NCBI RefSeq assembly: GCF_001677475.2
Contig: NZ_CP015229.1
Source of the DNA: Escherichia coli
GTDB taxonomy: Bacteria; Pseudomonadota; Gammaproteobacteria; Enterobacterales; Enterobacteriaceae
Direction: 5' to 3' (one strand)
Length of the DNA: 64,000 nucleotides
Part shown: positions 61,487 to 61,722 of the stretch, one piece after another
Layout of the letters: each line of letters starts with the position of its first letter
Numbering within the stretch: position 1 is the first letter of the stretch
Position numbers and translations under genes: made by a program
Notes under the pieces: model-generated
Told to the model about the DNA's origin: nothing
What the model saw: only the letters and a program-made list of their open reading frames with translations
Database searches by the model: none

Positions 61487-61622
61487 ACTCTCTCCTTATA
61501 ACCAATTGTTCTTGTTTTGTTAACATTGATAACAATTCGGTCAGTCTGACAGAGGGCGTCCGCGAGTCGAAATGATTTATCTGAGGAAGAAAAGCCAAAA
61601 AAAGCATAAAAAAAGCGCAATA

Positions 61623-61638
61623 AGAAAACGTTTGCTAT
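61623..61638 (+). promoter_or_regulatory. Candidate PurR operator upstream of pyrD
   Basis: AGAAAACGTTTGCTAT resembles the PurR box core (AAACGTTTGC); about 90 bp upstream of the pyrD ATG. pyrD regulation by PurR is established; the site call is inference. Confidence 0.4.
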
Positions 61639-61722
61639 TTATTGCCACAGGTCAATTCCCTTTTGGTCCGAACTCGCACATAATACGCCCCCGGTTTGCA
61701 CACCGGGAATCCAGGAGAGTTC

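Follow-up and report, generated by a model that had tools for sequence, protein, structure and literature searches.

Gene content of the ssuE–pyrD locus

The window, by which we mean the whole 64-kb stretch of Escherichia coli DNA analysed here, carries pepN, ssuBCDAE, an intergenic spacer, pyrD, zapC and ycbX, in this order. The genes that frame the spacer, and the spacer itself, are as follows:

54596–57208, plus strand: pepN, the upstream neighbour of the ssu genes in the window
57250–61486, minus strand: ssuB-ssuC-ssuD-ssuA-ssuE, the ssu operon, located between pepN and the spacer
60911–61486, minus strand: ssuE, NADPH-dependent FMN reductase, intact (191 aa), the first gene of ssuEADCB
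61487–61722, 236 bp: the ssuE–pyrD spacer, a complete divergent control region of the 'empty-site' type
61723–62733, plus strand: pyrD, quinone-dependent dihydroorotate dehydrogenase, intact (336 aa)

The identity of both flanking genes is clear from their products, with SsuE being 99% and PyrD 100% identical to the K-12 protein at the amino-acid level; ssuE is also annotated in near-identical RefSeq genomes, and pyrD bears the same name in the RefSeq annotation. As the start of pyrD we used the ATG at 61723, in agreement with the annotated start, while the open reading frame as listed begins at an upstream TTG. An earlier note on this DNA had described ssuE and pyrD as adjacent and 236 bp apart, and the ORF coordinates give exactly this distance.

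The elf operon of K-12 is absent and 69 bp stand in its place

In the MG1655 record the order is ssuE, elfA-elfD-elfC-elfG-ycbU-ycbV-ycbF (seven genes), pyrD. The K-12 arrangement that the earlier note had given, with the fimbrial operon elfADCG-ycbUVF between ssuE and pyrD, is therefore correct, and so is its observation that the operon is absent here: the window has no Elf match, and only 236 bp lie between ssuE and pyrD. Neither tblastn with the seven K-12 proteins nor blastn with the 7,087-bp K-12 insert detected an elf homologue or remnant anywhere in the 64-kb window, which thus lacks the seven genes that mark an occupied Ycb/ELF site.

Pairwise alignment divides the spacer into three parts. 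Positions 61487–61554 correspond to the 68 bp upstream of ssuE in K-12, with 65 of them identical, and positions 61624–61722 correspond to the sequence upstream of K-12 pyrD, with identity unbroken from 61649 onward on the pyrD side of the spacer. The 69 bp in between (61555–61623) are without a K-12 counterpart; at this point K-12 has 7,087 bp (positions 3582–10668 of the K-12 locus, L001), and the right edge of this insertion falls inside the first two bases of the PurR operator of pyrD. The elements of the spacer are:

61487–61554, minus strand: ssuE-proximal block, common to K-12, with the Shine-Dalgarno region, the conserved leader TTAACATTGATAACAATT and a candidate extended -10
61543–61551, ssuE strand: candidate extended -10 TGTCAGACT, assigned from conservation
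61555–61623: 69-bp segment, absent from K-12 and from all elf-bearing alleles examined, with two blocks conserved across genera
61569–61581, within the 69 bp: GAAATGATTTATC block, 80–99% conserved in 48 non-Escherichia species
61604–61609, within the 69 bp: GCATAA block, mostly at least 90% conserved (80–99% for both blocks together)
61622–61637: predicted PurR operator of pyrD, AAGAAAACGTTTGCTA, agreeing with ACGNAAACGTTTGCNT at 12 of 14 specified positions
61679–61717, plus strand: pyrD promoter-proximal region, mostly at least 70–90% conserved in 48 species
61679–61684, plus strand: -10-like CATAAT, as read from the sequence
61690–61695 paired with 61702–61707, plus strand: predicted leader hairpin CCCGGT/ACCGGG
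61713–61717, plus strand: Shine-Dalgarno AGGAG of pyrD

Searching both strands of the K-12 insert for the 69-bp segment gave a best local score of 12, below the shuffled mean of 13, which rules out that the segment survives there as a displaced remnant. Since the 69 bp are absent from the K-12 insert, the two arrangements differ by the replacement of 69 bp with 7.1 kb and not by a simple insertion or deletion.

The spacer is collinear with that of other Enterobacterales

A scan for SsuE with one genome per species yielded at least 80 loci, onto which PyrD, ZapC, SsuA and the seven Elf proteins were mapped; E. albertii, E. fergusonii and Salmonella are not identifiably among the at least 80 SsuE loci listed. 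Among the listed loci, 50 of the 64 from Enterobacterales have pyrD and ssuE divergently adjacent and 225–295 bp apart. The genera with such an empty site are Citrobacter, Enterobacter, Klebsiella, Leclercia, Lelliottia, Kosakonia, Kluyvera and Buttiauxella, and further Cedecea, Pluralibacter, Siccibacter, Erwinia, Mixta and Serratia. Two empty-site genomes deposited as E. coli are only about 90–92% identical to the window and therefore represent other Escherichia lineages. The other 14 of the 64 listed loci comprise four with a 400–540-bp spacer, five from Pantoea/Erwinia with 3.3–4.7 kb of other cargo, two from Pseudocitrobacter with an elf-like operon, one cut by a contig end and two without pyrD nearby. 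The Pantoea/Erwinia cargo (3.3–4.7 kb; loci L051, L053, L056, L057 and L061, at about 5.3–10.0 kb in locus coordinates) occupies the same spacer and encodes two family-2 glycosyltransferases and a multi-pass protein of 505–508 aa with no Pfam hit.

From the 50 non-E. coli empty spacers (48 other Enterobacterales species plus the two Escherichia lineages) we built a profile, leaving the window out. Searched with nhmmer, the window spacer aligns to positions 3–248 of the 248 profile positions (206 bits, E=1e-64), whereas K-12 aligns to the same profile only at positions 3–72 on the ssuE side and about 140–248 on the pyrD side, the latter including the PurR box. The window spacer thus has both the divergent 225–295-bp spacing and the end-to-end collinearity, central blocks included, of the ancestral Enterobacterales ssuE–pyrD control region. 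It shares with the other Enterobacterales spacers the gene pair, its orientation and the ordered series of blocks (Shine-Dalgarno/leader, AAATGATTTAT, GCATAA, PurR box, GGTCAATTCCCTTT and leader hairpin), and differs from them only by sequence drift and by 11–12 bp just after the PurR box, which are missing from E. coli and most Citrobacter spacers.

Because the 69 bp contain conserved motifs without a K-12 counterpart, and because the collinearity is complete, we read the empty site as ancestral and elf as an insertion. Specifically, we conclude with a probability of roughly 85% that the window spacer is the ancestral, never-interrupted ssuE–pyrD control region and that elf was inserted later, most likely once, and spread by recombination. 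The comparison favours gain of elf in other lineages over its loss in this one. The earlier note had proposed to define 'deletion endpoints' by alignment, a framing that does not survive the end-to-end collinearity of the spacer with 48 Enterobacterales species and two non-coli Escherichia lineages.

Several observations speak against an ancestrally empty site and a later insertion. A published analysis speaks of loss by F/G/B2 (PMC6896753), the presence of elf at the same site in Pseudocitrobacter could mean ancient presence followed by many losses, the K-12 insert is without mobile-element hallmarks, and E. albertii, E. fergusonii and Salmonella, as said above, are not identifiably among the SsuE loci listed. 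Moreover, recombination with a strain devoid of elf could give a perfect empty allele back to a lineage that had once carried the operon. That such an allelic replacement happened here – an elf-bearing ancestor having exchanged its locus, through homologous recombination with an elf-less E. coli, for an empty allele of ancestral type, so that the allele would be ancestral and yet the lineage would have a loss in its past – we consider unlikely, although the identity mosaic around the spacer is of the kind it would leave: the window is 99.2–99.8% identical to O158:H23 from 60.5 to 62.0 kb and 97–98% further out, its pyrD side is in places closer to K-12 (100% at 62498–62997), and what separates the two haplotypes is a discrete block whose linked SNPs lie immediately beyond the indel. 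Nothing requires a replacement, however, given that the outgroups and the two other Escherichia lineages are empty; the window lineage is about equally distant (at least 1.6%) from all 5,426 complete E. coli genomes.

In-situ deletion, by which the window lineage would first have been arranged like K-12 and later have shed the 7.1-kb operon from between the two genes, accords with the operon being at this site in K-12 and 75% of complete E. coli genomes and with the one published analysis that speaks of loss (PMC6896753), but it is most improbable, and the end-to-end profile alignment in effect refutes it: no deletion could restore the 69 bp at 61555–61623 that are missing from the elf haplotype and conserved in 48 other species, the window has no elf gene remnant, and the one true secondary deletion found, that of VE-T9 (L085 4933–6455), reads ssuE, IS1 transposase, an N-terminally truncated ycbF pseudogene and pyrD, and so keeps an IS1 and a ycbF fragment. 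Compared with such deletion derivatives of the elf locus, the window has no remnant, and its junction SNPs and 69-bp core are those of the empty-site type.

Both alleles are common in E. coli

The elf segment is found in 4,073 of the 5,426 complete E. coli genomes, and 1,352 (25%) have the empty junction as one contiguous match; together these account for 5,425 of the 5,426, making this a clean two-allele locus. The empty-site genomes include O25b:H4-ST131, and the window spacer is one SNP off those of ST131 and O158:H23. The ssu-side flank of ST131 is only 92–96% identical to the window, which does not have a B2-like flank, and empty alleles with the same spacer stand on flanking haplotypes that are 4–7% apart (window/O158 type versus ST131). 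An empty allele on such deeply diverged backgrounds is as expected for an old allele.

The polymorphism as such has been described. Wurpel et al. 2013 (PMC3559732) found Ycb in phylogroups A, B1, D and E but not in B2, where strains without Ycb carry the related, mutually exclusive Auf fimbriae at another locus and chaperone-usher operons number 11 on average; Gonzalez-Alba et al. 2019 (PMC6896753) describe the F/G/B2 lineage as having 'lost' ycb. That phylogroups B2, F and G lack Ycb/ELF is thus on record, and the window is one more elf-less genome, with the same locus in the same two states. It differs from the published cases in that its lineage is at most 98.4% identical to any complete E. 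coli genome and in that we read the polarity as gain, and not as the loss of PMC6896753; polarity is the only, small addition to the published polymorphism. The earlier note took the missing operon to point to a reduced adhesin repertoire, which elf absence does not imply, because 25% of complete E. coli genomes share the arrangement. With the empty site as the ancestral one, the K-12 reference would represent the derived state at this locus, and 'missing relative to K-12' would be no ground for inferring a deletion or a loss of adhesins.

Junctions of the elf insertion

The elf alleles share their boundaries. In four of them, namely those of K-12, O157:H7 and two with only 95% and 92% identity to K-12 across the insert, both junctions coincide to the base, and linked variants distinguish the elf and empty haplotypes just outside the indel (GTCTGTCGGAG versus GTCTGACAGAG on the left, GCGTTTTTTTT versus GC-TATTTATT on the right). 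Identical junctions in elf alleles that differ by up to 8% make a single insertion most likely. The K-12 insert has a GC content of 31–50%, as compared to 52–59% in the ssu operon, and contains only the seven fimbrial genes, with no integrase, no IS element and no flanking or direct repeats at the junctions; it lacks the hallmarks of a classical genomic island or mobile-element insertion, lower GC being its sole foreign mark.

Outside E. coli, an elf-like operon occupies the site in Pseudocitrobacter:

L014, 412–10549: elf-like locus of Pseudocitrobacter faecalis
L019, 2–4428: elf-like locus of a Pseudocitrobacter MAG

As in K-12, seven collinear genes lie between ssuE and pyrD, with 55–74% amino-acid identity between their products and the K-12 proteins; over 6.3 kb the DNA is 68% identical. 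K-12 and Pseudocitrobacter share the right junction, which abuts the PurR box: in either, the PurR core starts 10 nt past the end of ycbF, counted from the stop codon. The GCGTTTTTTTT variant is also found in Pseudocitrobacter. While the site is occupied, unlike that of the window, the Pseudocitrobacter operon also differs from the E. coli elf haplotype in having kept the ancestral spacer to about profile position 126, as in a simple insertion; the E. coli elf haplotype is additionally without profile positions 73 to about 139. That the Pseudocitrobacter spacer is kept to about position 126 locates the original point of insertion immediately next to the PurR box, towards ssuE, and the comparison implies that the E. 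coli elf haplotype probably lost or replaced a further 55–67 bp or so. Independent insertions in E. coli and Pseudocitrobacter are less likely than one event, the right junction being the same to the base.

We propose that elfADCG-ycbUVF, which about 75% of E. coli carry, K-12 among them, is a later insert of about 7.1 kb of lower-GC DNA. It would have entered directly beside the PurR box, towards ssuE, and, in E. coli, would have replaced about 67–69 bp of the ancestral spacer. After this single insertion, homologous recombination in the conserved flanks, ssuE and pyrD, would have carried the operon from lineage to lineage.

The E. coli elf alleles are 92–100% identical to K-12, with 316 genomes at 90–95%, a wider spread than in the core genes on either side. 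Such allele diversity with identical junctions could come from diversifying selection or from divergent alleles having been imported repeatedly. In O157:H7 F3113, elfC (the usher gene) and ycbF (the chaperone gene) are annotated as frameshifted pseudogenes (L089 3136–5735 and 7840–8576), so presence of the operon is no guarantee of function.

Predicted control elements of the spacer and the ssu promoter

The 236 bp probably hold two control regions back to back, the ssu promoter region and the pyrD control region. According to the pyrC/pyrD literature, expression of pyrD is regulated by PurR and by start-site-dependent folding of the leader. Its part of the spacer would consist of the PurR operator, the promoter and the leader hairpin. 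The PurR-like box that the earlier note had attributed to pyrD is real: AAGAAAACGTTTGCTA is conserved across genera and homologous in position to the K-12 pyrD motif CGGAAAACGTTTGCGT, which likewise agrees with the 16-bp palindrome ACGNAAACGTTTGCNT at 12 of 14 specified positions. In K-12, a PurR ChIP-chip peak covers CGGAAAACGTTTGCGT (PMC3159470), binding evidence that pertains to the K-12 allele only. In the window the PurR box and the pyrD leader are intact, with the conserved GGTCAATTCCCTTT block between the PurR box and CATAAT. Folding of the leader gave the expected hairpin, its energy being not better than that of shuffled sequences (z = -0.41), and the hairpin is thus to be taken as a conserved element only.

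The ssu part would comprise the conserved leader, the candidate extended -10 and a conserved upstream block as the likely activator/-35 region. A consensus sigma-70 scan of 61400–61800 returned no promoter-like site, and the promoter assignments therefore derive from conservation alone. The ssuE-proximal block is strongly conserved in 48 species (per-column conservation, for at least the loci listed). The conserved ssuE-strand pattern CTCTGTCAGACT would fit an extended -10, and the GATAAATCATTTC block, about 20–30 bp further upstream, lies where a site for a LysR-type activator such as Cbl, overlapping the -35 region, would be expected. The earlier note had presumed that the ssu promoter is retained along with the PurR box; the box and the conserved ssuE-proximal elements are indeed kept, the ssu promoter itself being deduced from their conservation. 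The full-text literature searched yielded nothing of use on a mapped ssu transcription start or Cbl site, or on a link between Cbl, ssuE and elfA, and to our knowledge all work on Cbl, CysB and IHF at the ssu promoter was done on the K-12 version.

The elf haplotype lacks the GAAATGATTTATC block conserved in 48 species as well as the T of the conserved TG, a part of the candidate extended -10, and it differs everywhere upstream of about -14; only a TC-N-AAAT motif stays in register, which could reflect a diverged donor version of the promoter, or chance. We tentatively raise, as a rather doubtful proposition, that elf, on inserting, took away the conserved upstream half of the ancestral ssu promoter (from about -14 outward), that elf-less strains and other Enterobacteriaceae regulate sulfonate use via different cis-elements, and that the spacer is a recurrent cargo site. 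If so, the upstream region of the K-12 ssu promoter would be non-homologous or donor-derived, and elf-less E. coli (25%, including B2 pathogens) would have a different, uncharacterised architecture shared back to back with pyrD. Regulatory maps of ssu drawn in K-12 may then not transfer to B2-type strains or other enterobacteria. The loci compared here suggest that the ssuE–pyrD spacer is a recurrent insertion point, and the recurrent cargo would be elf in the case of E. coli and Pseudocitrobacter, and genes for GT2 glycosyltransferases in that of Pantoea/Erwinia.

Wider context of the window

Over the 24 kb of core genes at 20000–44000 and the 12 kb at 52000–64000, no complete E. coli genome exceeds 98.4% identity to the window, and the 5,425 that match all lie within a 95–99% identity band. 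Judged by these identities, the DNA appears to come from an Escherichia coli-like lineage that branches deeply or is poorly sampled.

The region at 55000–61000, covering the 3' half of pepN and ssuBCDAE, varies to an unusual degree between lineages, and along it the closest relative shifts in a mosaic fashion; over 500-bp intervals, identities are 92–96% between ST131 and the window and 94–97% to K-12.

A 12.7-kb segment at 1778–14488 stands in place of K-12 ycaN-ycaK (K-12 948659–950339) and is presumably the other presence/absence difference in the window, next to which the earlier note had counted the elf operon as a second. According to the annotation of matching RefSeq records, it contains bcsA, bcsB and bcsC-like cellulose synthase genes together with genes for GGDEF and EAL proteins. 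At least 80% of the segment is found in only nine of the 5,426 complete E. coli genomes, in two at 95% identity and in seven at about 84.5%.

Finally, at 48459–48469 the window is without about 160 bp that K-12 has between gloC and aspC (K-12 984321–984482). Some elf-less genomes also differ from the window by about 164 bp, and the gloC–aspC difference of about 160 bp is possibly a REP-type element.
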